Shown: positions 10,575-41,429 of the stretch, one piece after another | Numbering within the stretch: position 1 is the stretch's first letter | Layout: each line of letters opens with the position of its first letter | Source: a bacterium HR11 | GTDB lineage: Bacteria; Acidobacteriota; HRBIN11 | DNA length: 64,000 nt | NCBI GenBank assembly: GCA_002898535.1 | Contig: BEHN01000007.1 | Span: 4,946-68,945, forward strand | Direction of reading: 5' to 3' | Made by a program: the position numbers and the translations under genes | The notes under the pieces: generated by a model | Seen by the model: only the letters and a program-made list of their open reading frames with translations | Database searches by the model: none | What the model was told of the DNA's origin: nothing

Positions 10575-11230
10575 GGACGTAGCGGAAATGCAAGGGGTAG
10601 ACTCGACCCCTCGGGGACCCCAACGAAGGATGGATTCGACAGGCGAGAGACTAACAGCGGAGTTGGCAGGCCCATCGGTATAAGGGGACCGAAGGCATCC
10701 GGGTCAGATTCAGGCTATCGTCGTGAGACGAACCGGCGTCCACAGGAGGTTCGAGGTCATTCACGCCGGTAGCCGTACCGGCCCGGTGAAGGAGGTCCGA
10801 AGGACCGGACGACTTCCCAGGGAACAGGGTCAGCGAAGCCGGCAGGGGCTCCAGACAAGTGCCGCCGGCGGTCGCCGGCACCGGAGAATGGCAAGGACCC
10901 GTCGGCGGGGGGTCTTCAGGGGTCCTCGGGACGTCGAGGCGAAAGCCTTCGGCGGGCGTCTCACAACATGTATGGGAAGCCGCCTGGGCCCTCACGTGTC
11001 GGCACGTCCACAAGGAGACCCCACACACAGCCGGGACCATGCCCATCAACCATCCTAACGTCCACAAGGTGGCCCCTATCCGCCGACCTCGCAAGGCAAA
11101 CCTCCACTTGTCCGTTCGGTCTCAGCGACGTCCCTTTTCCTACTTCGTCACTCCATCGCTCTAAAATACGCCGGTCCGGGTGCTGACGCAACCACGGATT
11201 CGCTACTTCCGGATACCGAAGGCCCGATCG
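10575..11230. other. about 650-nt GC-rich stretch with no credible protein-coding potential; candidate structured ncRNA or decayed gene
   Basis: The only ORFs here are short Arg/Gly/Pro-rich overlapping frames on both strands. Several tight hairpins with GNRA-like loops are present (GGUCCGAAGGACC, GAGGCGAAAGCCUUC). No RNase P, tmRNA 3' end or tRNA signature was found. Confidence 0.25.
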
Positions 11231-11357
11231 GGGTGACCGCCCATCCCTTGGGCCGTGATCGACCGGGGCCTAACCCTGGGGCGGACCCTCCGAACGCCAC
11301 CAGTCACGGGGGCGTCCCCCTGTCCCCGGGCGCCGCCGGTCCCGGCGGTGGCATCTA

Positions 11358-11808
11358 TTCGGCAGATGGGCAGTCGGCAGGTCGGCAGGTCGGGCGACGG
11401 GCGTCTATCCTCGGAACACCGGCCGTCATGCCGGTGCCTTCCGTTCGGTTCGGGAGAATGGCGTCGGGACGGCCTTTTCCATCGCCCGGCAAGCACGATG
11501 TTTCACAAAGGGACGGAGTGATGGACCATAGACCCCAGACCATAGACCGGCTTGGGCCCAGGGGTCTATGGTCCATGGTCTATGGTCTATGGTCTATGGT
11601 CCGTGGTCCATGGTCTGGGGTCGGATATCGAGGGTCCGATCCCGGTCCCGTCGGATGGATGAGACCGGTTCGATGGAAGGATGATCCCGACCGGCCCGTC
11701 GGCCCAAGACCGTGGCTCGTCCCTCCGTCCCTTCAAAACCGTCCTCCCCGAAGGGTCGAAAAGGTCGAATCCATGCGGGCTTTCACGAACCGAACGGCTT
11801 TAATAAGC
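11358..11808. mobile_element. composite repeat: family-A MITE core and arms with a family-C (GGTCTATGG) palindrome inserted
   Basis: GGCAGATGGGCAGTCGGCAGGTCGGCAGG core at 11358-11400, arm ...GGGAGAATGGCGTCGGGACGGCCTTTTCC..., GACCATAGACC/GGTCTATGGTC palindrome at 11522-11625, and arm ...CCGAAGGGTCGAAAAGGTCGAATCCATGCGGGCTTTCACGAACCGAACGGCTTTAAT at 11735-11808. Confidence 0.5.
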
Positions 11809-12055
11809 GGTCCGCAGATCGGGAGGTTGCACGGCGTGTCGGGGAGTCTAAAATACGGAAGGCGATCAGGGGGCCCGGCCTGCCGGGTTTGGACGTATAG
11901 GCCCCCCGGCCCAGAAGGGGCGACGATACCGGGGGCCGGGGCTCGCGTCTCGGTATCTCACTTCCGGTAGGGTGCAGGCCCCGGCCTTGGAGCGCAGGCG
12001 TCCTCGCCTGGGGGAAGGTAGGCTTCTGGCCTGCGCCGAAGGAGGAGCGTTCTCG

Positions 12056-13399
12056 ATGGTTGAGGCCGCTCAGACGTCTTATACCCACGAGCTGAAGGTC
12101 CAGGACGACTTTCATTTTCAGCTCTTCATCACGGTGCCCTGGCCGGAGGTCGATGCGAAGCTCAACGAGTACGCTCGGGAGCTCCGCCGGATCGTCCCCA
12201 TGCCGGGCTATCGTCCCGGCCGGGCGCCTGTCGAACTCATCCGACGGGTCCTTCGCAAGAGTCTGGAGGAGCGTCTCCGCGACTGGTTCCCCGAAGTCGT
12301 CCGACGGGTCGTTCAAGACCAACAGATGGACGTCGTGACGGACCCCGTCCTGACGGACTATACCTTTATTGAGGGCCAGCCCCTCGTGCTCCAGTGCTGG
12401 GGCACGTTGTGGCCGCCGGTCTCCCTGAAGCCCCTGACGGCGGTGACCCTGCCGGCGGATTTGGAAGCCCGCTGGCAGGCCGAGGAGCGGGCCCGGATCG
12501 ACCAGGAAATCGAGTCTTTGCGGGAGAAGCAGGCTATCCTTCAGCCCGTGACCGACCGGGGCCTTCAAGCCGGGGACACCGTGACCCTGGGGTTGAAAAT
12601 GGAAGACGTGGACACGGGTCAGGCGTATACGAATCCGGACGGTGAGGAGGTCGTCGTGACCTTAGGGAGCCCGGTCCTCCATCCGGCCGTGACGTATCAC
12701 TTAGAGGGCAAGCGTCCGGGCGACACTTTTACGTGGGAGATGGACATCACCCTCCCATGGGAATCGGAGACGTCCGCCCCGACGTCGGACCGACCGGGCC
12801 GCACGCGTCGGGTCCGCCTATCCGGCCGTATCGAAAACGTCTACGCCGTGGAGCTCCCGCCTGTCGAGGACCTCTTGGAACAGGAAGGCTTCGAGTCGCT
12901 CGACGAGTGGCGGGCGGCCCTGCGGGAGCGGCTGGCCGGCCGGCTCGCCGAGGAGCGGGAGGCCTGGCTTCAGGGTGTCCTCGTGGATGCCCTGATCGCC
13001 GAGTCGCCGGCCTGGCCCGACTGGTTAGTCCGTTCCTTCCTCCAGGAGGAGGTCGAGCGGATCGTCCGGAAGCAAATTCGGGCCTACGAACGGCTACACT
13101 TGTGGCTCACGCATCTGGAATCTATCGTCGGCGAGGCCCTATCGTCAGCCCACCGACGGGTCGCCCGGGTCGTCGCCCTGCATCATTTCATTCGGTCCGA
13201 GGGCCTGACCTTGAGTGATGAGGAATTCGACCAGTACCTGGCCGAGGTCGCCCGTCGGGAGAACCGCACGGTCGAATCCCTCCGAGCTTACGTAGAGGCC
13301 GACCCGACGGAGAAGGCCCACGTGTTCCAGCAGGCCCTCTTTCGGAAGGCGACCCACGTCCTGATGGAGCGACTGGGGCTCTCGGGCGGAGCTCCATGA
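12056..13399 (+). CDS. tig: trigger factor
   Basis: Start taken at [15 protein letters not shown]... (M29 of ORF 11972..13399). The Tig N-domain signature [17 protein letters not shown] (GFRxGxxP) is followed by PPIase and C-terminal arm domains. clpP is immediately downstream. Confidence 0.8.
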
Positions 13400-13429
13400 C
13401 GGGGCCATGGACAGCTCTCGGCATTTCGG

Positions 13430-13676
13430 GAATTCGGGAGTTCGGCAATTCGGCCGTTCGGCCGGTGGGACCGGTCGACCCTTTTTATCCCAGCCCCGCT
13501 CGTTCGAGCGGGGTCCGGAGCTATCCGGCCGTTCGGGAATCCGGGGATTCGGGAATTCGGGAGTTCGGGAGCCCGGGCATGGGGTGGCCGGCCGGGGCGG
13601 GGATGAGGCCTGGAGGCCCGTGCCGGTGGAAAAGGCCGTCTCGACGCCATTCTCACGGGCCGAACGGCTCTGTTAC
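13430..13676. repeat. family B GAATTCGGG palindrome (13430-13572) fused to a family-A MITE arm (13630-13676)
   Basis: CATTTCGGGAATTCGGGAGTTCGGCAATTCGGCCGTTCGG ... CCGTTCGGGAATCCGGGGATTCGGGAATTCGGGAGTTCGGGAGC, then GACGCCATTCTCACGGGCCGAACGGCTCTGTTA. Confidence 0.55.
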
Positions 13677-13716
13677 CCTATCACGACGTCGCGTCGTGAC
13701 GAACCTTGAGGTGAAG

Positions 13717-14334
13717 ATGGAGCTGAAGGGTCAGTTGATCCCCATCGTCATCGAGCAGACTCAACGCGGCGAACGGGCTTATGACATTTACTCCCGCCTC
13801 CTCCGGGACAACATCATCTTCCTGGGCATGCCGATCGACGACAACGTGGCCAACCTCATCGTCGCCCAGATCCTCTTCCTGGAGGCCGAGGACCCCGAAA
13901 AGGACATCCATCTTTACATTAACTCGCCCGGCGGGGCCATCACGTCGGGCCTGGCCATCTACGACACGATGCAGTTTGTCCGACCGGACATCACGACCTA
14001 CTGCGTCGGTCAGGCCGCCAGTATGGCGGCCGTCTTACTGGCGGCGGGCACGAAAGGCAAGCGATACTCGCTTCCCCATTCCCGGGTCATCATCCATCAG
14101 CCGATGGGCGGCATCCAAGGCCAGGCCGTGGACATCGAGATTCATGCCCGGGAGATCCTGCGCATCAAGCAATTGATCGTCGACATCCTGGCCCAGCACA
14201 CGGGTCAAAAGCCCGAGCGCATCGAGGAGGACATCGACCGGGACTTCATCATGACGGCGACCCAGGCCAAGGAGTACGGTATCGTCGACGAGGTCATCTC
14301 CCGACGGGGCAACCAACGGGAGACTCGCAAGTAG
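13717..14334 (+). CDS. clpP: ATP-dependent Clp protease proteolytic subunit
   Basis: 205 aa from [29 protein letters not shown]... RBS GAGGTG lies 5 nt upstream. The catalytic-triad region is GQAASMAA...HQPMGG. The N-terminal 107 codons of ORF 13396..14334 are translated repeat sequence. Confidence 0.9.
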
Positions 14335-14344
14335 ACGTTATTGG

Positions 14345-14559
14345 GCCGAGGGTCCCCAAAGCCCTGGGGCCGCGCCTGGCCCATCCAGGGCTCTATCGGC
14401 CTTGGGCCGACCGGCCCATCGGCCCAAGGCCGGGGCTCGTCCCTTCGTTACTCCGTCATTCCATCCCTTCGTCACACCGTCCCTTTGAAACATCGTGCTT
14501 CCCGGGTGTTGGGAAAGGTCGTCCCGACGCCATTCTCACGGGCCGAACGGCTGTGTTAA
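14345..14559. mobile_element. MITE family A, 5'-truncated copy (sub-variant with GGTCCCCAAAGCCCTGGGGCCGCGCCTGGCCC core); direct repeat of 16171..16453
   Basis: Near-identical over about 215 bp to the right-hand part of the copy at 16171..16453, in the same orientation. It ends GACGCCATTCTCACGGGCCGAACGGCTGTGTTAA. Confidence 0.6.
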
Positions 14560-14677
14560 CAAAGCCGTAGGTCTTGGGTCCTGGGTGTCGGGTTTCCAAA
14601 GGGATCTGACCCTCCCATCTCCTATCGGGCCGCCCCGGGAATTGTCCCCGGCGGTCCGCTCCAGATGCTTTCAGCGT

Positions 14678-16138
14678 TTACAGGGTCCTTTCGCATAATT
14701 GGGGCGGCAGGGGAGCTACATCCTTCCAATACCCGGAGATGGGCTGGAAGCGTTCTTGAGCGACGTCCGGAATCCGGTGAACTTCGACCTTCAAGTCCGT
14801 GATGTCCAGAGGCACGTCCTCCGTATAAACCGGAAGCTCAAATTCCGTCACGCACTGAGGCACAAACGCCTGGCCGGCCGGGTCGGTCTTCATAAGCAGA
14901 AGCCGTTCCCCCCGACCGACGACGCCAAGGATTCCAGCGATAAGGAATCCACCGTCCGAGGTCGGCTGAAGGGATACCAGGTTTACCTCATCCTTGAACC
15001 TATAAAATCGTTGGGCTGCCAAGTAACCCTGGGCGTCAAAGCGCCAAAATCCAGGAGAGGGCGGTTGGAGCGTACCGTCGGGATTCCGGAATTGGGCATT
15101 AAGCAACACGGCTACACCGCCGTCCGGTGTCCCCCGGAAGGTCAGCCTGTCGATGTCTCCATCTATCCAAAAGACCCGGGCCCACCGAATGGTACTCTTG
15201 CCATCCCATTTCAGCAGAAGAAGGACATTCCGGTAATCGGGGTAGTAACCAGATATGAACCCGCCTATTAGGAAGCTCCCGTCCCGCGTTGGCTGAATCC
15301 AGTGGGCCGACTCCGTGAGGTCTCCCCGGATAACCTTCGAATCCAGGACGCGTCCATGGTCATCAACCTGCAATGCCCAAATGTCTCCCCGACCGATACC
15401 GGTACACATCGTATGGCCGATCGCCTGATACCCGCCTTGGGGTGCTACAGTAAGGGTACGAAGGATGTTGCTCGCAAACCGGCAGTCCCGGAATTCTCCC
15501 ACAGGCTGATACACATGGGTCCATATCAAGAAACCCTCTCGGTCGAATCTCGATATCGTAGGACCTTGTCCTACGTACTTAGAGCTGGTATGGCCCAGGA
15601 CCATTAAGCGGTCCTGAGTCGGGGAAGGAACGACCCCAAAGGCCACCGTATTGGGTAAGTTATAAGAATATTGGCCATACAGCCCTAAGGGATAAAACGA
15701 CTTGAGCCAGGGCACCCCCTCGGGACTTCGGAACTGGGCGACCATTTGGTGAACCCTCGTATAGTGACGGACCGTTTGATTGTGGAGCCCAGCCAGCCAC
15801 AGAGTCCCTGGGACTGGTGAATAGGAATCTAATACCATGAAGTAATACGGAATTTGCTTCGCGTATATCACGTTCCCTTTAGTATCGACTCTTAAGATGA
15901 ACGTATGGTAAGGGGAATAGGTACCACCATCTCCCCCAAACACGCCGATGACGTCGTATCGGTCTGGATGCTCCGTCGGCGCAATGTACGGACCGATATA
16001 AGTCTGAGACCGAGCTTCCAATCCGTAGACCCCGACCCATGTCTGGAACCGGACGTCGGCCCCGGCCTTTATAGGGGCCAGACCCCCGACCAGGACCCAT
16101 GCCCCGAGCCATCGTAAGACTTTCCATGCCCGCCGCAT
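14678..16138 (-). CDS. secreted beta-propeller repeat protein (SBBP-like), atypically low GC, likely horizontally acquired
   Basis: 486 aa from MRRAWKVLRWLGAWVLVGGLAPIKAGA (signal peptide). Recurring blade-like motifs: TRDGSFLIGGF, TPDGGVAVLL, TSDGGFLIAGI. Local GC is about 50% versus about 67% for the flanks. The gene is flanked by direct MITE copies. Confidence 0.6.
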   Translation of the reverse strand: MRRAWKVLRWLGAWVLVGGLAPIKAGADVRFQTWVGVYGLEARSQTYIGPYIAPTEHPDRYDVIGVFGGDGGTYSPYHTFILRVDTKGNVIYAKQIPYYFMVLDSYSPVPGTLWLAGLHNQTVRHYTRVHQMVAQFRSPEGVPWLKSFYPLGLYGQYSYNLPNTVAFGVVPSPTQDRLMVLGHTSSKYVGQGPTISRFDREGFLIWTHVYQPVGEFRDCRFASNILRTLTVAPQGGYQAIGHTMCTGIGRGDIWALQVDDHGRVLDSKVIRGDLTESAHWIQPTRDGSFLIGGFISGYYPDYRNVLLLLKWDGKSTIRWARVFWIDGDIDRLTFRGTPDGGVAVLLNAQFRNPDGTLQPPSPGFWRFDAQGYLAAQRFYRFKDEVNLVSLQPTSDGGFLIAGILGVVGRGERLLLMKTDPAGQAFVPQCVTEFELPVYTEDVPLDITDLKVEVHRIPDVAQERFQPISGYWKDVAPLPPQLCERTL

Positions 16139-16170
16139 GGCTCTCTCCGCTTTGTGATAAGCTAATTTAG

Positions 16171-16453
16171 CAGAGCCGTTCGGCCCGTGCAAACCCGTAT
16201 GGATTCAGCCTTTCCGACCCTTCGGGGAGGACGATTTTTCAAGCGAAGGGCCGTTCGGGAGTTCGGCCGAGGGTCCCCAAAGCCCTGGGGCCGCGCCTGG
16301 CCCATCCAGGGCTCTATCGGCCTTGGGCCGACCGGCCCATCGGCCTAAGGCCGGGGCTCGTCCCTCCGTCCCTCCGTCCCTTTGAAACATCGGGCTTCCC
16401 GGGCGTTGGGAAAGGTCGTCCCGACGCCATTCTCACGGGCCGAACGGCTCTGT
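16171..16453. mobile_element. MITE family A, full copy (same sub-variant as 14345..14559)
   Basis: CAGAGCCGTTCGGCCCGTGCAAACCCGTATGGATTCAGCCTTTCCGACCCTTCGGGG... ...GGGAAAGGTCGTCCCGACGCCATTCTCACGGGCCGAACGGCTCTGTG. Confidence 0.65.
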
Positions 16454-16559
16454 GCAAGGATCAGATACTCTATTCGCTTGGCCCTTCGCTCTATGCCCGA
16501 TGCCCCTTCTATTTCCTTCCCCCCGCACTCATGATGGGTCAGACTACAGGGAGGTTGGC

Positions 16560-16600
16560 CTTGTAAGTAGCCTCCGGTATGATATTCCTGTGGAACTTAC
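16560..16600 (+). promoter_or_regulatory. putative sigma-70-like promoter for ppdK (TTGTAA ... TATGATAT)
   Basis: An AT-richer patch, TTGTAAGTAGCCTCCGGTATGATATTCC, lies 30-60 nt upstream of the ppdK start. This is visual only. Confidence 0.25.
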
Positions 16601-16623
16601 TCTCAAGCGACCAGGGGAGCGCC

Positions 16624-19347
16624 ATGGACCGGAAGGCCAAGTACGTCTACTTCTTCGGGGGCGGTCAGGCGGAGGGCTCGGGCCAGATGAAGGACCTCCT
16701 CGGCGGCAAGGGGGCGGGTCTGGCCGAGATGACGAGCCTGGGCCTCCCCGTCCCGCCCGGCTTCACCATCACGACGGAGGCCTGCCGCATCTTTTACGAA
16801 AACGGCGAGCAAGTCCCCGATTTCATCTGGCAGGAAGTCGAGGCCCACCTGCGCCGTCTCGAAGAGGTCAGCGGCAAGCGTTTCGGGGACCCCTCGAATC
16901 CCCTCCTCGTCTCCGTCCGGTCGGGCGCCAAGTTCTCGATGCCCGGCATGATGGACACGATCCTGAACCTGGGGATGAACGACGCCGTCGCCGAGGGCCT
17001 GGCCCGACTGACGGGCGACCGGCGCTTTGCGATGGACACCTACCGGCGGTTCCTTCAAATGTTCGGGAGCATCGCCCTGGGCATCCCGAAGGAAAGGTTC
17101 CATGAAGCCCTCGAAGACCTGAAGCGCCGCCGGGGCGTCCGCCAGGACGTCGAGCTGGCGGCCGACGACCTGGCCGAGCTCGTCGAGACCTTCAAGGCTA
17201 TCATCCAGCAGGCGACGGGGGCGCCCTTCCCGCAAGACCCTCGGGCCCAGCTTCGGGCGGCCGTCACGGCCGTCTTTCGGTCCTGGAATAATCCCCGGGC
17301 CCAGTACTACCGGAAAATCCACGGGATTCCCGACGACCTCGGGACGGCCTGTAGCGTCGTCATGATGGTGTACGGCAACATCGGGGAAGATTCGGGGACC
17401 GGCGTCGGCTTTACGCGCAATCCCTCGACGGGCGAGAAGGTCCTGTACGGAGAGTTCCTCCCCAATGCCCAGGGCGAGGACGTCGTCGCCGGGATCCGGA
17501 CGCCCCTGCCCCTGCAAGAATTGGAGCGGCGGCTTCCCGACGTGTACGCCCAGCTCCGGGACATCGCCGAAAAGCTGGAGCGCCACTACCGGGACGTCCA
17601 GGACTTCGAGTTCACCGTCGAACGGGGTCGGCTCTACATGCTTCAGACCCGGGTCGGCAAACGCACGGCCCAGGCGGCCGTCCGGATCGCCGTCGACATG
17701 GTCCGGGAGGGCCTCATCCGCCCGGAGGAGGCCGTCCTGCGGGTCGACCCGGCCCAGGTCGAACAGCTCCTGCATCCGGTCATCGACCCGGCCGTCCGGG
17801 CCCGGCACCGGCCCGTCGCCCAGGGCCTGCCGGCCTCGCCGGGGGCGGCGTCGGGCCGCGTCGTCTTCACGGCCGATGAGGCCGTCGCTCGGGCCGAAAA
17901 CGGCGAGGTCGTCCTCCTGGTCCGGGACGAGACGACGCCCGACGACATCCACGGGATGCACCGGGCCGTGGGCATCCTGACGAGCCGAGGGGGGATGACA
18001 AGCCACGCCGCCGTCGTCGCCCGCGGGATGGGCAAGCCCTGCGTCGTCGGCTGTGAGGCCCTCCAGATCGATTCCCGCCGACGGGAACTCCGGGTCGGGG
18101 ATACGGTCCTCCGGGAGGGCGACTGGCTGACCATCGACGGCTCGACGGGCGAGGTCTTCGTCGGCCAGCTCCCGACCGTCGAACCCCGCATCAGCGACGA
18201 GTTTGCGACCCTCCTCGAGTGGGCCGACCGGTTCCGTAAGCTGGGCGTCCGGGCCAACGCCGATACGCCCCGGGATGCCGAGATCGCCTACCGGTTTGGG
18301 GCGCAGGGCATCGGCCTGTGCCGGACCGAGCACATGTTCTTCGGCGAGGACCGTCTGCCCCATATGGTCCGCATGATCATGGCGGCCACGCCGGAGGAAC
18401 GTCGAGCGGCCTTGAACGAGCTCCTTCGCTTTCAGGTCGAGGACTTCGTCGGCATCTTCCGGGCCATGCAGGGCTACCCCGTCACGATCCGGCTCCTCGA
18501 CCCGCCTCTCCATGAGTTCCTGCCCAAGCGGGAGGAACTGATTCAGGAAATCGCCGAGCTGAAGTTCCGCCTGACACGGACCGACGACCTCAAGGCGATG
18601 GATGCCCTCTTGAAGGCACTTCACGAGAAAGAGCGACTCCTGGCCCGTGTGAACCAGCTCTACGAGTTCAACCCCATGTTGGGCCACCGGGGCGTGCGTC
18701 TGGTCATCACGTACCCCGAGATCGTCGAGATGCAGACGCGCGCCATCATCGAGGCGGCCATCCGGGTCAAGCGCCAGGGCCTGCGGGTGGCGCCCGAAAT
18801 CATGGTTCCCCTCGTCAGCACGGACACGGAGCTCGAGCAAGTCCGGCGGATCATCGAGACGACGGCCGAACGGGTCATGGAAGAGCAGGGCGTCCGGGTC
18901 CTCTATCAGGTCGGGACGATGATCGAGGTCCCTCGCGCCTGCCTCGTCGCCGACCGTATCGCCGCCTACGCCGAGTTCTTCTCCTTCGGGACCAACGACC
19001 TGACCCAGATGACCTTCGGCTTCTCTCGGGACGACATCAACAAGTTCCTGCCCGACTACTTGGAGAAAAAGCTCCTGCCGGCCGACCCGTTCCAGACGTT
19101 GGACACGGAGGGCGTCGGGGAGCTCATCCGGATCGCCATCCGCAAGGGACGCGCGGCCCGGGGGAACCTGAAGATCGGCATCTGCGGCGAGCACGGCGGG
19201 GACCCGGCGTCCATCACCTTCTGTCATGAGGTCGGCATGAACTACGTGAGCTGTTCGCCGTACCGGGTCCCGGTCGCCCGTCTGGCGGCGGCCCAGGCGG
19301 CCCTGCGGGCCCAGGCCGTGGCGGCCGAATACGCCGCCTCCGTGTGA
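16624..19347 (+). CDS. ppdK: pyruvate, phosphate dikinase
   Basis: 907 aa from MDRKAKYVYFFGGG... The N-terminal motifs are KDLLGGKGAGLAEM...GLPVPPGFTITTEAC. The phospho-His motif is GGMTSHAAVVARGMGKPCVVG. A PEP-utilising TIM barrel is at the C-terminus. The antisense ORF 16603..19227 is a shadow. Confidence 0.9.
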   Translation: MDRKAKYVYFFGGGQAEGSGQMKDLLGGKGAGLAEMTSLGLPVPPGFTITTEACRIFYENGEQVPDFIWQEVEAHLRRLEEVSGKRFGDPSNPLLVSVRSGAKFSMPGMMDTILNLGMNDAVAEGLARLTGDRRFAMDTYRRFLQMFGSIALGIPKERFHEALEDLKRRRGVRQDVELAADDLAELVETFKAIIQQATGAPFPQDPRAQLRAAVTAVFRSWNNPRAQYYRKIHGIPDDLGTACSVVMMVYGNIGEDSGTGVGFTRNPSTGEKVLYGEFLPNAQGEDVVAGIRTPLPLQELERRLPDVYAQLRDIAEKLERHYRDVQDFEFTVERGRLYMLQTRVGKRTAQAAVRIAVDMVREGLIRPEEAVLRVDPAQVEQLLHPVIDPAVRARHRPVAQGLPASPGAASGRVVFTADEAVARAENGEVVLLVRDETTPDDIHGMHRAVGILTSRGGMTSHAAVVARGMGKPCVVGCEALQIDSRRRELRVGDTVLREGDWLTIDGSTGEVFVGQLPTVEPRISDEFATLLEWADRFRKLGVRANADTPRDAEIAYRFGAQGIGLCRTEHMFFGEDRLPHMVRMIMAATPEERRAALNELLRFQVEDFVGIFRAMQGYPVTIRLLDPPLHEFLPKREELIQEIAELKFRLTRTDDLKAMDALLKALHEKERLLARVNQLYEFNPMLGHRGVRLVITYPEIVEMQTRAIIEAAIRVKRQGLRVAPEIMVPLVSTDTELEQVRRIIETTAERVMEEQGVRVLYQVGTMIEVPRACLVADRIAAYAEFFSFGTNDLTQMTFGFSRDDINKFLPDYLEKKLLPADPFQTLDTEGVGELIRIAIRKGRAARGNLKIGICGEHGGDPASITFCHEVGMNYVSCSPYRVPVARLAAAQAALRAQAVAAEYAASV

Positions 19348-19353
19348 AAGGTT

Positions 19354-19500
19354 AACAGAGCCGTTCGGTTCATGAGAATGGCGTCAGAACAATCTTTCCC
19401 ATCCCCCGGAAAGCACGATGTTTCAAGCATTCGGCAGATGGGCAGGTCGGCAGATGGGCAGATGGGCAGGTCGGCAGATGGGCAGGTTGAGAGACTGGTA
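19354..19500. mobile_element. MITE family A arm plus heptamer core (no right arm)
   Basis: AACAGAGCCGTTCGGTTCATGAGAATGGCGTCAGAACAATCTTTCCCATCCCCCGGAAAGCACGATGTTTCAAGCATTCGGCAGATGGGCAGGTCGGCAGATGGGCAGATGGGCAGGTCGGCAGATGGGCAGG. Confidence 0.55.
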
Positions 19501-19665
19501 CCTATCCTCGGAACACCGGCCGTCATGCCGGTGTCTTCCGTGGGGCGATGGCCCCTCACCCTGTCCCTTTCCCCGGAGGGGAGAGGGGACAGGATGGCCC
19601 ACGCCTCGCCTCCTGCCCGGAGCGAACGGCCAATGGCCAGCAAGATGCTGGCGCTCCCAGCGTAA

Positions 19666-19720
19666 GGTCTATGGTCGATGGTCCATGGTCTGTAGTCCAA
19701 GATGGACCGTTATGGATGGT
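19666..19720. repeat. family C GGTCTATGG heptamer palindrome (short)
   Basis: GGTCTATGGTCGATGGTCCATGGTCTGTAGTCC. Confidence 0.45.
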
Positions 19721-20547
19721 TGAGTCGATTCGTCCTGTGGGTGTGGCCGACACTGTTTTTGGTCGTCGCCGGCCTGTTCTATCCGGGCCTGGCCCTGGGC
19801 GGCTGGACGGCCGTCGGTATCGGCCTCCTCCTCATGGAGGGCTTCCAGTGGGCCGAGCGCCAGCCGGGGGCCTGGTCCTTTAAGTTCCTGACCGGTGCGG
19901 TGGTCCTGGCCGTCTTGAGCGCCGGCCTGGTCTGGCGGTGGCCCCGGGGACCGGTCGTCGCCATGCTGGTCCAGGCGGTCATCCTGGTCGGCATGGGAGC
20001 CGTCTTCCGGTGGCTTCAGGTCCCGACGGTCTTTCCGGCGGCGGGCCGGTGGCCGGCCGTGTTCCTGGCCCTGGGGGAATTCCTGTACTGCACGGGATGG
20101 CTCGCCCTGGCGTGGCTCTACCGGTACATGCCCGGGCGTGGGCCCGACCTGGCGTGGCGGCACTGGCTGACGTCACCCCTGCCCCTGGCGGTCTTCCTGC
20201 TGGCCCTTCAATTCATCGGCCTGCAGGCCTTTCTCCGGGCCAATCCCGAGCATCCGGCGGGGCGGGCCTGGCTGAGGTCGGTCCGCCTCGTCGTGGCCGT
20301 CGGGATGGTCGCCGGGCCCGTCGTCGGCGTCCACCTCTTCCGCCTGCCGGCCCTCTGGTACCTGGTCGGCCTGCTGTGGCTGTACACCTATCGGACGTAT
20401 GACCGGATGGGGGCCTGGCTCCGACAGTGGGAAGCCGGCGAGGCGTCTCCCTGGACGTACATCGAACTCCAGCACCGGACCCTCCGGGAGGCCCTTTACT
20501 ACGGCCTGGTCCTCCTGGGCCTCGTGGGGAACAGCTTCCTGCGATGA
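19702..20547 (+). CDS. hypothetical Trp-rich polytopic membrane protein
   Basis: 281 aa. There are at least 7 predicted hydrophobic helices (LWVWPTLFLVVAGLFYPGLALGGW..., AVVLAVLSAGLVW..., LAVFLLALQFIGL...). Amino-acid composition is coding-like. No recognised family. Confidence 0.5.
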   Translation: MDRYGWLSRFVLWVWPTLFLVVAGLFYPGLALGGWTAVGIGLLLMEGFQWAERQPGAWSFKFLTGAVVLAVLSAGLVWRWPRGPVVAMLVQAVILVGMGAVFRWLQVPTVFPAAGRWPAVFLALGEFLYCTGWLALAWLYRYMPGRGPDLAWRHWLTSPLPLAVFLLALQFIGLQAFLRANPEHPAGRAWLRSVRLVVAVGMVAGPVVGVHLFRLPALWYLVGLLWLYTYRTYDRMGAWLRQWEAGEASPWTYIELQHRTLREALYYGLVLLGLVGNSFLR

Positions 20548-21036: not shown

Positions 21037-21318
21037 ATGACGAAACGGATGGGAAGCCGGGTCATCGGCCTGGTCCTGGCGGGGTGGGTCCTGGGCTTGG
21101 CCGTGGCCCGGGCGGATGAGGTCGCCAAGGTCCAGTCTGCCTGTGCCGCCCAGCTCCTGGAGGAACTCCAGGGTTCGTCCTCAAAGTGTAGCCTGTTCCC
21201 GAGCCTGCTGTTGACCCAGGGGCGCTACGCCCTGGTCGATATCCATGTCCGATGCGTCGCTCCCGGTTCGAGGGGGCCCGAGGTCTCCTATCAGAGCCGT
21301 TCGGGAGGTGAGAAGTGA
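21037..21318 (+). CDS. small secreted hypothetical protein
   Basis: Start at MTKRMGSRVIGLVLAGWVLGLAVARA (signal peptide), with RBS GGAGG 7 nt upstream. The C-terminal about 10 codons read into the MITE at 21292. Confidence 0.35.
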   Translation: MTKRMGSRVIGLVLAGWVLGLAVARADEVAKVQSACAAQLLEELQGSSSKCSLFPSLLLTQGRYALVDIHVRCVAPGSRGPEVSYQSRSGGEK

Positions 21319-21376
21319 GATGGAGGTGCCCTTTCCGCTCTCCATCTCACTTCTCACCTCCCGAACGGCTTTGTTA
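21292..21376. mobile_element. short palindromic variant of MITE family A
   Basis: CAGAGCCGTTCGGGAGGTGAGAAGTGAGATGGAGGTGCCCTTTCCGCTCTCCATCTCACTTCTCACCTCCCGAACGGCTTTGTTA is a near-perfect hairpin related to the arms of copy 1. Confidence 0.55.
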
Positions 21377-21460
21377 AAATTAGATGCGGGGGTCAGGAAT
21401 CGGGCTTTTCCCAGACCCCCGACACCCAGGACCCAAGACCGAGGTTCAGCGAGGTCGGCT

Positions 21461-24436
21461 ATGGCCGACAAGCCGGTGTTTCGTCCCATCAGTGATTACA
21501 TCTGGGAGGCGGAGCCCGTCGGCGATATGCGGGTCCCGGCCCGGGTCTTTGCCTCCAAGAAGCTCTGGGACCTCATCCAGCGGGACAACAGCCTGAAGCA
21601 GTTGTGCAACGTGGCGACGCTCCCGGGGATCGTGGGCTATGCGCTGGCGATGCCGGACATCCACGAGGGCTACGGCTTTCCCATCGGGGGCGTGGCGGCC
21701 TTTCGGGTCGAAGACGGAATTATATCACCTGGAGGCGTTGGGTATGACGTGAATTGCCTGTACGGTGATGCCAAAGTATTGCACATTCACGGATACACTC
21801 GGGCCATCGCCGATATGGAGGCCGACTGGCCTCAAGGGCGGGTCCGTTGTCAGGACTTCCGGGGGGGCCATGGTACGGATACACCCGTCATCGGCTTTTT
21901 ACGCCGTCGCCCTTACGGGACCGTTTATCGGGTGACGACGGACACGGGCCATGAAACTGTCGCGACGGCCGACCATCCCTTCTGGACGCCGGCGGGGATG
22001 GTCGAGCTCCGGCGGCTCCAGGTCGGGGATCGGGTGGCCGTCTACCCCTTTGAGGGCGTGCCTTACGAGGAGCCGGCGGCTCGGGTGTTGGTGGACGAGT
22101 CCCATATCGTGGCCGTCCTGGAACGCTATGGGAAGGCCGGGCGCGGCCGGGCCGTCACCCAGGTCTTGCGCCGACTTCGGTCGCGGGGGCTTCTGCCCTT
22201 GCGGGCGAACGCGCCGCAGGTCCCTTACCTGCTGAAGCTCTTGGGGTACGTGCTGGGAGACGGCACGGTCTACTTCACAGGCGGCACGGGCAAGGGCGTC
22301 GTGTGGTTTTATGGCCGACCGGAGGACCTGGAGGCTATCCGGGCCGACGTGGCGGCCCTCGGCTTCACGCCCTCTCGGATTTACAGTCGTCCCCGTCGTC
22401 ACCGTGTCACGACGGCCTATCGGGACTATGAATTCGAGAGCCAGGAACACGCCGTAAAGGTCGTAAGCAGTAGCTTCGCCGCCTTGCTGGTCGCTCTGGG
22501 CGCCCCGGTCGGCAACAAGGCGGTACAGGACTATGGGGTCCCCGAGTGGCTCCTGGAGGCACCTCGCTGGCATCAACGCCTCTTTTTAGCCGCCCTTTTT
22601 GGGGCCGAGCTTTCAGCCCCCCGGGCTTTGGACCGACACAATCACAATTTCATGACTCCTGTACTCTCGGTGAGCAAGCGAGAATCCCACGTCGATAGTG
22701 GCCGTCGTTTCCTCGAGGATATCGGGCGCATGTTAGCCGGTTTTGGCGTTCAGGTCCTGAAGATCTCTCAGCGGCGAGAGCAGACGCATGCGGACGGGAG
22801 CCGCTCGGTCCGTCTCCGACTCGTTCTCTCCGCCCGGCTCGACAGTCTGCGCAACCTCTGGGGCCGCATTGGATTCGAGTACAATCAAAAGCGGCAGGCC
22901 CTGGCGAGCGTGGCTGTCGGGTATTTACGGTACAAAGCGCATGTCTTGCGCCTCCGGGAGGAGGCGGCTTCGGCGGCCGTCGCCCTGCGGGCCCAGGCTC
23001 TGCCGCCGACGGCCATCTTCGACCGGCTCGTCGGCTTGTATGTAAATCGGCGCTTTTTAGAGCGGTCGCTGTATGAAGGTCGCACGAGCCCTCGGGTCGG
23101 CGCCGCCTTCATGACCTTCGAGGAGTACCGCCGTTGGGCGACCGAGGGTCTGGGGACCAGCGGGATGGTCTGGAGCCGGATCATTCGTCTGGAGCCGATT
23201 CCCTTCGCCGGGGACGTTTACGACCTGACCGTCGCCCATCCAGACCATAACTTCATCGCCGACGGATTCGTCGTCTCCAACTGCGGCGTCCGGGTCGTCG
23301 TCACGAACCTGACCCGGGAGGACCTGGAGGGGAAGGTCGAGCGGCTGGCCGACGTCCTGTTCGAGACGGTCCCGACGGGCGTCGGCGCCCACGGCGCCAT
23401 TCGCAAGCTCAGTCGGGAGGAGCTCCGGCAGGTCGTCGTCCGGGGCGCCCGGTGGGCCGTCGAGGAGGGCTTCGGGACCGAGGCGGACCTGGCCCACACC
23501 GAGGAAAACGGCTGTCTCGCCGGGGCGGACCCCGACAAGATCTCCCACCGGGCCTACGAGCGTGGGGCCGACCAGCTCGGGACCCTGGGGTCGGGCAACC
23601 ACTTTGCCGAGGTCGACGTCATCGACGAGATTTACGACGAGGCGGCCGCGCAGCGGTTGGGCCTCTTTCGGGGCCAGGTCGTCTATCAGATCCACTGCGG
23701 CTCTCGGGGCTTCGGGCACCAGATTTGCGACGATTACCTGGGCGTCATGTACCGGGCCGTCCAGAAGTACGGCATTCGCCTGCCGGACCGTCAGCTCGTG
23801 TGTGCGCCCCTTTCGTCGCCCGAGGCCCAGGACTACCTGGGGGCGATGCGGGGGGCGGCCAACTTTGCGTGGTGTAACCGGCAGATCATCATGGCCCTGA
23901 TGGCGAAGGCTTTTCAAAAGGCCCTGGGCGTCTCGCCCCGGGACCTGGGCGTCCGGCTCCTGTACGACGTGTGTCATAATATCGCCAAAATCGAGGAGCA
24001 CGTCATCGACGGTCAACGCGTGAAGGTCTGCGTCCACCGGAAGGGGGCCACGCGGGCCTTCCCGCCGGGTCGGCCCGAGATACCGGCCGACTATCGGGAC
24101 ATCGGTCAGCCGGTCCTGATCCCGGGCGACATGGGCCGGTACTCGTACATCCTCTTGGGGAAGCCGAAGGCGATGGAGCTGACCTTTGGGAGCTCCTGTC
24201 ATGGGGCGGGTCGGGTCATGAGCCGGGCCCAGGCGAAGCGTCTGGCGGCGCATCGGGACATCGAGCGGGAGCTCCGGGAGATGGGGATCATCGTCCGGGG
24301 CGAGAGTCGAGCGACCATCGACGAGGAGATGTCGGAGGCTTACAAGGACGTCAGCGAGGTCGTCGAGGTCGTCCATCGGACGGGCATCAGCACGAAGTTC
24401 GTACGTCTCCGGCCCGTCTGCGTCATCAAGGGATAG
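21461..24436 (+). CDS. rtcB: RNA-splicing ligase RtcB, interrupted by an in-frame intein
   Basis: Start at MADKPVFRPISDYIW... (M73 of ORF 21245..24436). The N-extein ends ...SPGGVGYDVN and the C-extein resumes CGVRVVVTNL... Downstream RtcB motifs are LGSGNHFAEVDV, HCGSRGFGHQ and SSCHGAGR. Total length is 991 aa against about 480 aa for intein-less RtcB. Confidence 0.85.
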   Translation: MADKPVFRPISDYIWEAEPVGDMRVPARVFASKKLWDLIQRDNSLKQLCNVATLPGIVGYALAMPDIHEGYGFPIGGVAAFRVEDGIISPGGVGYDVNCLYGDAKVLHIHGYTRAIADMEADWPQGRVRCQDFRGGHGTDTPVIGFLRRRPYGTVYRVTTDTGHETVATADHPFWTPAGMVELRRLQVGDRVAVYPFEGVPYEEPAARVLVDESHIVAVLERYGKAGRGRAVTQVLRRLRSRGLLPLRANAPQVPYLLKLLGYVLGDGTVYFTGGTGKGVVWFYGRPEDLEAIRADVAALGFTPSRIYSRPRRHRVTTAYRDYEFESQEHAVKVVSSSFAALLVALGAPVGNKAVQDYGVPEWLLEAPRWHQRLFLAALFGAELSAPRALDRHNHNFMTPVLSVSKRESHVDSGRRFLEDIGRMLAGFGVQVLKISQRREQTHADGSRSVRLRLVLSARLDSLRNLWGRIGFEYNQKRQALASVAVGYLRYKAHVLRLREEAASAAVALRAQALPPTAIFDRLVGLYVNRRFLERSLYEGRTSPRVGAAFMTFEEYRRWATEGLGTSGMVWSRIIRLEPIPFAGDVYDLTVAHPDHNFIADGFVVSNCGVRVVVTNLTREDLEGKVERLADVLFETVPTGVGAHGAIRKLSREELRQVVVRGARWAVEEGFGTEADLAHTEENGCLAGADPDKISHRAYERGADQLGTLGSGNHFAEVDVIDEIYDEAAAQRLGLFRGQVVYQIHCGSRGFGHQICDDYLGVMYRAVQKYGIRLPDRQLVCAPLSSPEAQDYLGAMRGAANFAWCNRQIIMALMAKAFQKALGVSPRDLGVRLLYDVCHNIAKIEEHVIDGQRVKVCVHRKGATRAFPPGRPEIPADYRDIGQPVLIPGDMGRYSYILLGKPKAMELTFGSSCHGAGRVMSRAQAKRLAAHRDIERELREMGIIVRGESRATIDEEMSEAYKDVSEVVEVVHRTGISTKFVRLRPVCVIKG
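21755..23281 (+). other. intein (509 aa) with LAGLIDADG homing-endonuclease domain inside rtcB
   Basis: The insert begins with Cys (CLYGDAKVLHIHGYT...) and ends ...HPDHNFIADGFVVSN immediately before the Cys of CGVRVV. LAGLIDADG-like motifs are LLGYVLGDGTVYF and FLAALFGAELS. The penultimate residue is Ser rather than the usual His. Confidence 0.75.
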
Positions 24437-40898: not shown

Positions 40899-41152
40899 GC
40901 CCCGATGATCTCACGTTTTTGCCGGACGTACTCTTCGTAGGACATCTTGCCCGTCTGATAATCGTACTCCAGGTCGATCAACTGCTGAATCTTGAAGGGG
41001 TCGTCCAGGCCGTCCGGGACGGACGGCGGGACCGACCCAGGTCGGTCCGACGGGGACGACGCCACCCCCGCGTTTACCCAAAAGGGCCGCAGGACCCATC
41101 CGATCAGGGCCAGGAGGACAAAAACGAGAGCCAAACCTATCAGTACATTCAT
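40895..41152 (-). CDS. small membrane protein with SHOCT-like C-terminal domain
   Basis: 85 aa. The N-terminal TM segment is MNVLIGLALVFVLLALIGWVL. The C-terminal SHOCT-like motif is LIDLEYDYQTGKMSYEEYVRQKREII. The 4-nt overlap with the downstream ABC ATPase start suggests translational coupling. Confidence 0.45.
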   Translation of the reverse strand: MNVLIGLALVFVLLALIGWVLRPFWVNAGVASSPSDRPGSVPPSVPDGLDDPFKIQQLIDLEYDYQTGKMSYEEYVRQKREIIGA

Positions 41153-41429
41153 CCGGGATGCCTAATCCTAAGGGACGGACGACCATCTTGGCAGTGGGTC
41201 CATAGGGCATTGGCACGCGACGCGAGGGTTCGGGACGCCACCGTTTCATGGGTTCAAGGCGACGTCGACATTAGGCGCCAGACGTCATCCAGATATATCC
41301 AGCTTAGCATTTACACGACGGGCCGTCCAGCCAGAATTTGACAAGGTCGACCGACGTTCGATAGGATAGGCCCGCTTGTGGCACCGACCGAGCCAACGCG
41401 GACCCTTCCCTATCCCAGGGGCTTCATTC

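Follow-up and report, generated by a model that had tools for sequence, protein, structure and literature searches.

MITEs, or miniature inverted-repeat transposable elements, are recognised hotspots of homologous recombination, and DNA segments that they flank can be relocated (PMC10969869). Both recombination between MITEs and passenger DNA flanked by them have already been described (PMC10969869, PMC3934969, PMC13367494), and the locus presented here shows no new mechanism. It lies in a 64-kb stretch of DNA, hereafter the window, from bacterium HR11, a metagenome-assembled genome of hot-spring source that belongs to HRBIN11, a class of Acidobacteriota (PMC11778308). In this window, a low-GC gene for a 486-aa beta-propeller protein stands between clpP and the pyruvate, phosphate dikinase gene (ppdK) and is bracketed by two copies of a MITE-like element. 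The stretch 14560-16166 (1.6 kb), with this low-GC coding sequence as its core, is read as a lineage-specific gene gain for which MITE-mediated recombination is the likeliest route, a reading that is given a probability of roughly 0.6. The locus offers a clean example of gene gain, with boundaries at the level of single bases, from an uncultivated thermophilic class of Acidobacteriota.

Gain of a low-GC gene between clpP and ppdK

The propeller gene fills a spacer that is short and devoid of any such gene in two close relatives of HR11. Contigs of these relatives were reached through homologues of tig (trigger factor) and PPDK and were mapped by blastn, as tblastx maps were swamped by GC-rich noise. 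The two most informative arrangements are set beside that of HR11 below.

HR11: tig, clpP, a 2289-bp spacer that holds the propeller gene, ppdK, gene for a 281-aa protein
L011 (GCA_030550225.1; PPDK 98% identical): tig, clpP, a 481-bp spacer with no propeller gene, ppdK, gene for the 281-aa protein
L016 (GCA_900175155.1; PPDK 95% identical): tig, clpP, a 261-bp spacer with neither propeller gene nor MITE, ppdK, gene for the 281-aa protein

Positions 10633-20538 of the window are colinear with L011 except in the spacers. The DNA upstream of ppdK in other lineages (L012-L015) lacks the propeller gene as well, and tblastn of the propeller protein against the loci of the relatives returned nothing. 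The comparison of the region downstream of clpP that the first-pass annotation had proposed therefore bears out a presence/absence difference. Its expectation of clpX at this place is not borne out: in no relative is clpP followed by clpX, the position being taken by ppdK, an efflux operon or a BamD-like gene. The locus in HR11 is made up as follows, the flanking repeats being described in the next section.

11972-13399, + strand: tig, the upstream anchor (Pfam Trigger_N and Trigger_C; orthologues in relatives at 83-95% identity)
13717-14334, + strand: clpP, 205 aa, with its ATG at 13717 after GAGGTGA (Pfam CLP_protease, E = 3e-85; colinear with the 205-aa clpP of L011, L016 and L002)
14335-14352, + strand: old junction ACGTTATTGGGCCGA, directly past the clpP stop codon (TAG) and common to gene-less relatives
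14560-14677, - strand: 3' flank of the propeller gene, 62.7% GC, holding a 24-nt repeat at 14567-14590
14678-16138, - strand: beta-propeller gene HRbin11_01095, 486 aa
16139-16166, - strand: 5' leader of 28 nt with Shine-Dalgarno sequence GGAGAG, 46% GC, abutting the TA that flanks the full MITE
16456-16623, + strand: native ppdK upstream region, parts of which are conserved in L016 and L012
16624-19347, + strand: ppdK, 907 aa, the downstream anchor (Pfam PPDK_N, PEP-utilizers and PEP-utilizers_C; orthologues at 94-98% identity)

The outer boundaries of the locus are old. L005 and L011 align to window position 14352 and then diverge, and because both have the same left junction without the gene, this junction predates the gain. 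On the right, L016 and L012 keep both a promoter-like sequence, TTGGCC-17-TATGAT (16555-16583), and the GGTCAGAC...CCGGTATGAT block.

The gained coding sequence is also clearly set apart by its composition. Against a native baseline of 39 confident genes of the window, its GC content is 55.8% as opposed to 66.3% (standard deviation (sd) 2.4; z = -4.3), its GC at third codon positions (GC3) is 62.2% as opposed to 83.3% (sd 4.1; z = -5.2), and an index like the codon adaptation index (CAI), computed against the codon usage of the window, is 0.417 as opposed to 0.661 (sd 0.058; z = -4.2). The profiling of GC and codon usage suggested in the first-pass annotation thus upholds the low-GC gene on all three measures, while the figure of about 50% GC given there is too low. 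The 60-nt stretches below 40% GC that it had mentioned are found at 15809-15923, and elsewhere in the 64 kb they recur at a single place. Low GC is restricted to the coding sequence: neither the MITE copies, with 64-66% GC, nor the 3' flank, with 63%, stands out from native DNA. Since GC3 is five standard deviations low in a gene that is itself a lineage-specific gain, its origin is best explained by horizontal acquisition, the donor being unsampled. A second atypical open reading frame (ORF) of the window, at 40919-41341 on the + strand (140 aa, 58.9% GC, GC3 61.7%), has no Pfam match and no adjoining MITE.

The propeller ORF begins with an ATG at 16138 after GGAGAG and ends with a TAA stop at 14678-14680. 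A word-indexed search over 5.8 billion proteins identified it as identical to HRbin11_01095 and returned, besides itself, only two weak matches. An exhaustive HMMER (phmmer) search over 1.84 billion representative proteins gave 11,674 relatives at E <= 0.001, the best of them other than itself at E = 1.6e-66, with most matches spanning several stretches of the protein; these significant homologues of the 486-codon frame rule out a spurious gene. The nearest proteins are about 25-34% identical, none exceeds about 34% in either search, and the best matches are of mixed origin (a Thermoplasmata genome bin and metagenome proteins). The search for distant affinity that had been called for thus ends without a close relative.

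The protein is a remote relative of the DUF5122 (PF17164), or delta-60-repeat, beta-propellers, as judged from its homologues and a structural model. PF17164 is borne by the top relatives, one of which is annotated as "delta-60 repeat protein". The multi-stretch HMMER matches are one feature common to the HR11 protein and this family; another is a DGG[YF]-type motif that recurs in the protein and appears about every 50 aa in the consensus of its relatives. The third is the predicted fold. A single-sequence AlphaFold2 model was unusable (predicted local distance difference test score (pLDDT) 35), and the model used instead, built with a 37-sequence alignment, is an all-beta propeller with pLDDT 76.8 and a predicted template modelling (TM) score (pTM) of 0.77; in a Foldseek comparison its best match in the PDB is the CylK propeller (TM 0.61, E = 4e-11), and other propellers match as well. 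Unlike its relatives, the HR11 protein falls below every Pfam and NCBIfam threshold, with no match to any repeat model at E <= 0.01 and E <= 1, respectively, in addition to the low identity given above. It is also a lone propeller with a putative signal peptide, without the immunoglobulin-like or surface-layer (S-layer) domains of large DUF5122 relatives. The N terminus, MRRAWKVLRWLGAWVLVGGLAPIKAGA/DV, has the charged, hydrophobic and AxA-like regions of a Sec signal peptide by inspection and hydropathy scan, so the protein is probably secreted, and any function proposed for it would likewise be a prediction from sequence.

As the 28-nt leader abuts the TA that flanks the MITE, the promoter of the propeller gene must lie within or beyond the full MITE. 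A promoter-like site, by consensus match only, is found on the minus strand at 16606-16579. At about 14636-14666, the 3' flank contains an inverted repeat rich in GC that was picked out by eye, without folding. It also contains a 24-nt repeat of CCCGACACCCAGGACCCAAGACC type, at 14567-14590 (-), that recurs exactly at 21418-21441 (+), with a MITE end adjoining both occurrences; this exact recurrence indicates that the 3' flank holds repeat DNA of native style.

The flanking repeats and their family

The first-pass annotation had described a truncated and a full copy of one element, nearly identical and in the same orientation, on either side of the gene, and this description is correct, with coordinates within a few bases of those below.

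14341-14559, + strand: truncated MITE, consisting of the palindromic centre and the B-end module, with a terminal inverted repeat (TIR) at 14537-14559 followed by TA; it is without the A-end module and its TIR
16167-16455, + strand: full MITE of 289 bp, consisting of TA, the A-end TIR (16169-16189), the A module, a palindromic centre with 8-nt arrays, the B module and the B-end TIR (16434-16454)

The left copy, which starts 6-9 nt past the clpP stop codon, is shorter by about 95 nt, one TIR included. Its two parts match the full copy at 96% (14341-14457 against 16262-16378) and 94% identity (14464-14556 against 16361-16453), and in a gapped alignment 182 of 189 positions are identical (96.3%). 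The copies differ by seven substitutions and one 24-nt (3 x 8) indel inside an array of 8-nt units; they have an exact 58-mer in common where none is expected by chance, and identical runs between them reach 81 nt. Their similarity opens at GGCCGA and closes exactly at the MITE terminus. TA is present on both inner sides of the gene segment, and TG, instead of TA, adjoins the full copy on its outer right. The outer flanks, left ACGTTATTG and right TGCAAGG, have no duplication in common. Folded as single-stranded DNA, the full copy gives a single long hairpin (-87.9 kcal/mol, z = -6.7).

Flanking by this family is in itself unremarkable because its members sit in about every intergenic spacer of the window. 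What stands out is the 96% identity of the two copies. They are each other's closest relatives within the window, where identity of the other copies to the full one is 57-79% when comparable lengths are aligned. Their divergence is 3.7%, whereas HR11 and L011 are 16.5-17% apart at four-fold degenerate sites, and the similarity of the copies is on this ground younger than the HR11/L011 split. A 22-mer of the sub-variant, searched in a collection of genome contigs that evidently does not include HR11, gave only three chance matches, in Chloroflexota and Streptomyces.

The family to which both copies belong is an undescribed one of MITE type, very dense in a single lineage. Its ends are TIRs of the form TAnCAGAGCCGTTCGG, which is matched 16 times in the 64 kb against 0.06 expected, and the arms, of 22-23 nt, are 91-95% complementary. 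About 13 loci are present in the window, and the TIR density in HR11 is 2.5 per 10 kb. Members are about 260-370 bp long and non-coding, with distinct A and B end modules around a variable palindromic centre of 8-nt tandem units; the full copies other than 16167-16455 measure 258-366 bp, and all full copies are too short to encode a transposase. Among the window ORFs scanned there is no transposase gene, and the window holds no autonomous element with matching ends. TA adjoins 16 of 19 scorable ends, and may belong to the element itself instead of being a duplicated target, the spacers of the relatives being too diverged for a comparison of empty sites. If TA is a target duplication, the partner to expect would be a DDE enzyme of IS630/Tc1-mariner type. 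An Rfam scan of the window returned nothing, and none of the curated RNA or repeat families searched is related to this one in sequence. Two further copies lie next to tig.

13396-13676, + strand: MITE-like copy in the tig-clpP spacer, starting at the tig stop codon, with a B-end TIR only (13654-13676) and 8-nt tandem arrays
11441-11806, - strand: full-length MITE upstream of tig, in opposite orientation, at the other breakpoint of the tig-clpP inversion of another lineage

The distribution of the family points to recent activity. The tig-clpP spacer measures just 121 bp in L011, and in L002 and L003 it shrinks to about 40 bp; both this spacer and the one downstream of ppdK hold MITE copies in HR11 and none in L011. 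TIR matches are present in L011, L010 and L005, and there is one in L016. No TIR match was found in about 95 kb of more distant relatives, and patterns for the A-end and B-end modules gave 0 matches each in JGI metagenome contigs. This distribution marks the family as one that expanded recently, and only in HR11 and its nearest relatives. Assemblies of these genomes will be fragmented by it, and it probably shapes their gene order.

Some features of the family extend beyond the flanking pair. The two B-end-only copies (13396-13676 and 14341-14559) each start at, or within a few bases of, the upstream stop codon (tig and clpP, respectively), are without the A end and are oriented like the full copy. 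This may reflect a one-ended form that arises systematically, or else selection that disfavours the A end near gene ends. Palindromic 8-nt tandem arrays, such as GGCAGATG/GGCAGGTC, GGGAATTC/GGGAGTTC and GGGGTCTG, are held by spacers across the class (window 13419-13592, 19440-19500 and 11530-11620; L016 12725-12870; L012 240-460; L002 2190-2290). In those relatives that have no TIR modules, these arrays stand alone, and they may be a separate repeat system that gained MITE ends.

The tig-clpP-ppdK neighbourhood is a rearrangement hotspot in the class HRBIN11. Two contigs of the lineage from JGI sample 3300020567 share an overlap of 141 nt without a mismatch (100% identity), and the order obtained by joining them, ppdK(-)-tig-clpP-X-OEP-MFP-RND, means that the tig-clpP block is inverted relative to HR11, L011 and L016 (compared over window 11106-14352, L002 1-2770 and L012 1-715). 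Both breakpoints fall in spacers that hold MITEs in HR11 (11441-11806, minus; 14341-14559, plus), one of them being the spacer that received the propeller gene. In L011, the clpP-ppdK spacer contains an AT-rich palindromic insert of about 150 bp (L011 3470-3640) that is nested in a MITE remnant and looks like a different small element, and a MITE end stands in place of the conserved -10 region of ppdK. Further downstream in HR11, the 281-aa protein without a Pfam family (19702-20547, + strand) is encoded directly 3' of ppdK in all relatives examined (L010, L011, L012, L013 and L016), and the RtcB RNA ligase gene (21245-24436, + strand; 1063 aa, Pfam RtcB and Intein_splicing) is split by an intein.

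Proposed route of the gain and competing explanations

The proposed course of events starts from an ancestral tig-clpP-ppdK order with a short clpP-ppdK spacer, in which the HR11 lineage then gained a gene for a DUF5122-like propeller, predicted to be secreted and probably derived from an unsampled donor. The repeats that now flank the gene are members of the MITE-like family expanded in HR11 and its nearest relatives only. The left copy opens at the junction that existed before the gain and yet is 96% identical to the full right copy. Together, the old junction and this identity indicate that, since HR11 parted from its nearest relative, one copy has arisen from the other or the two have been homogenised. 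The likeliest mechanism is homologous recombination through MITE sequence. It could have been Campbell-type integration, in which a circle of the gene plus one MITE would have recombined with a resident truncated MITE. Alternatively, gene conversion between neighbouring MITE copies may account for the arrangement. The circle model fits the anatomy because TA on both sides of the gene segment and TG at the outer right are what a single TA-flanked MITE would leave; gene conversion would yield this pattern too. The direct repeats would also leave the segment prone to recombinational deletion.

Several points weigh against this reading. The route is read from anatomy alone, and no circle junction, empty site in the HR11 population or donor locus was seen. 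Low GC3 is a standard but indirect sign of transfer. The immediate source of the gene may moreover have been another place in an HR11-like genome and not a foreign donor, since the 3' flank carries a native-looking repeat. Past the shared junction, the spacer of L011 contains a differently oriented MITE remnant, so the history of the resident copy is not a simple before and after. Copies of the sub-variant were counted in the 64-kb window alone. Finally, the independent Logan contig (L001) covers only 14526-16220, and the joins across the MITE bodies rest on the assembly.

A different explanation, in which one recently active MITE sub-variant transposed twice, independently, beside a gene that arrived separately (e.g., by illegitimate recombination), is unlikely, although it fares best among the alternatives. 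The left copy would later have lost its A end, and the bracketing would be a coincidence in a MITE-saturated genome. Since nearly every spacer of the window has MITEs, flanking by chance is expected; in addition, each copy stops exactly at a MITE terminus with TA adjoining, and the copies that HR11 has in excess of L011 in other spacers show recent activity. This account does not explain, however, why a copy whose left junction is older than the split has a body only 3.7% diverged, compared with 17% at neutral sites. Transposition is not expected of a copy that lacks one TIR, identity to the full copy stays at or below about 79% for all other copies of the window when comparable lengths are aligned, and on its right side the full copy is flanked by TG rather than TA.

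It is improbable that the arrangement is an assembly artefact, in which a 1.7-kb fragment with the gene, from elsewhere in the HR11 genome or population, was misjoined through MITE sequence. The source is a metagenome bin, the Logan contig of the gene is only 1695 bp long and ends inside both MITE copies, and the copies have identical runs of up to 81 nt, all of which would favour a misjoin. Against this, the private differences between the copies (seven substitutions and the 24-nt indel) are usable by an assembler, and the Logan contig has the private GGCTGTG variant of the left copy beside the gene. The fragment ends are moreover MITE ends of a lineage-specific family, so the gene would come from an HR11-type genome even then. 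No record was returned when ClpP of HR11 was looked up exactly for a matching Logan contig.

Still less probable is an ancestral gene at this site that the relatives lost through recombination between the direct repeats. Such a deletion could proceed through direct repeats that are about 190 nt long and 96% identical, but the 261-bp spacer of L016 has neither MITE nor gene, and the spacer of L011 is not the single recombinant copy expected after deletion. No homologue is present in any relative examined, nor a close one in the databases searched, GC3 is five standard deviations under that of native genes, and the MITE family is younger than, or confined to, the HR11/L011 clade.

Weakest of all is a composite unit of two MITEs and the gene mobilised by a transposase, as in the Acinetobacter MITE-flanked integrons or TIME-COMPs, for which the direct copies of one MITE around a passenger gene and the published precedents (PMC3934969, PMC13367494) would speak, and which is already contradicted by the left copy without an outer TIR. 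Also against it are outer flanks (ACGTTATTG and TGCAAGG) that are not a duplication, a left boundary that is an old junction common to gene-less relatives, and the lack of a transposase gene among the window ORFs scanned. The suggestion in the first-pass annotation of a captured or mobilisable cassette, or of gain or loss by recombination, accordingly stands in part: there was a gain, and the repeats could mediate loss, while a mobilisable cassette in the transposon sense is not supported, given a gene that lies outside the TIRs, the missing outer TIR and the absence of a flanking duplication. An integron cassette or site-specific island was also considered and rejected, as no integrase or tRNA is nearby (a tRNA scan of the window was empty).

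A broader claim than the gain of this one gene is that the MITE family is a recombination platform for gene capture, here through a circle of about 1.9 kb (the gene and its TA-flanked MITE) that entered the resident truncated MITE. This is doubtful. If it were true, MITE-rich spacers would be general-purpose landing pads where single genes are moved or acquired, and the same repeats would drive local inversions such as the flip of tig-clpP.

Comparison with known systems

Lineage-specific gene gain with MITE-mediated recombination as its likeliest route places the HR11 locus near several described systems. As regards the repeats, the closest are prokaryotic MITEs such as the Correia elements of Neisseria (PMC10969869, PMC2229807). 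Like these, the HR11 elements are non-coding, about 260-370 bp long, end in TIRs with TA at most ends, occur in many intergenic copies, form strong hairpins and differ in insertion between close relatives. They differ from Correia-type MITEs in their unrelated sequence and modular A/B build, and no cognate transposase has been identified.

Pairs of 439-bp MITEs around Acinetobacter class 1 integrons (PMC3934969) and TIME-COMPs (PMC13367494) resemble the HR11 arrangement in that two MITEs of the same orientation flank passenger DNA. Those units have two complete copies and a target duplication around the whole, whereas in HR11 the left outer end is missing and there is no duplication. With Campbell-type integration and excision, the locus has in common the direct order of partial repeat, insert and full repeat, and outer boundaries that are old while the inner ones are element ends. 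It differs in that integration in HR11 is deduced from this anatomy only, neither a circular form nor an empty site in the population having been observed.

The gained segment itself is most similar to the small strain-specific islets acquired by horizontal transfer. Atypical composition and codon usage, absence from the site in the closest relatives, a lack of close homologues and flanking repeats are common to both. A typical islet differs from the HR11 segment, which is a single gene with no integrase, tRNA or phage genes nearby and no identifiable donor. Taken together, these comparisons describe an ordinary but well-documented gene gain, which fits best among the small islets acquired horizontally, here within a MITE-rich spacer and accompanied by a new MITE family of a known type.

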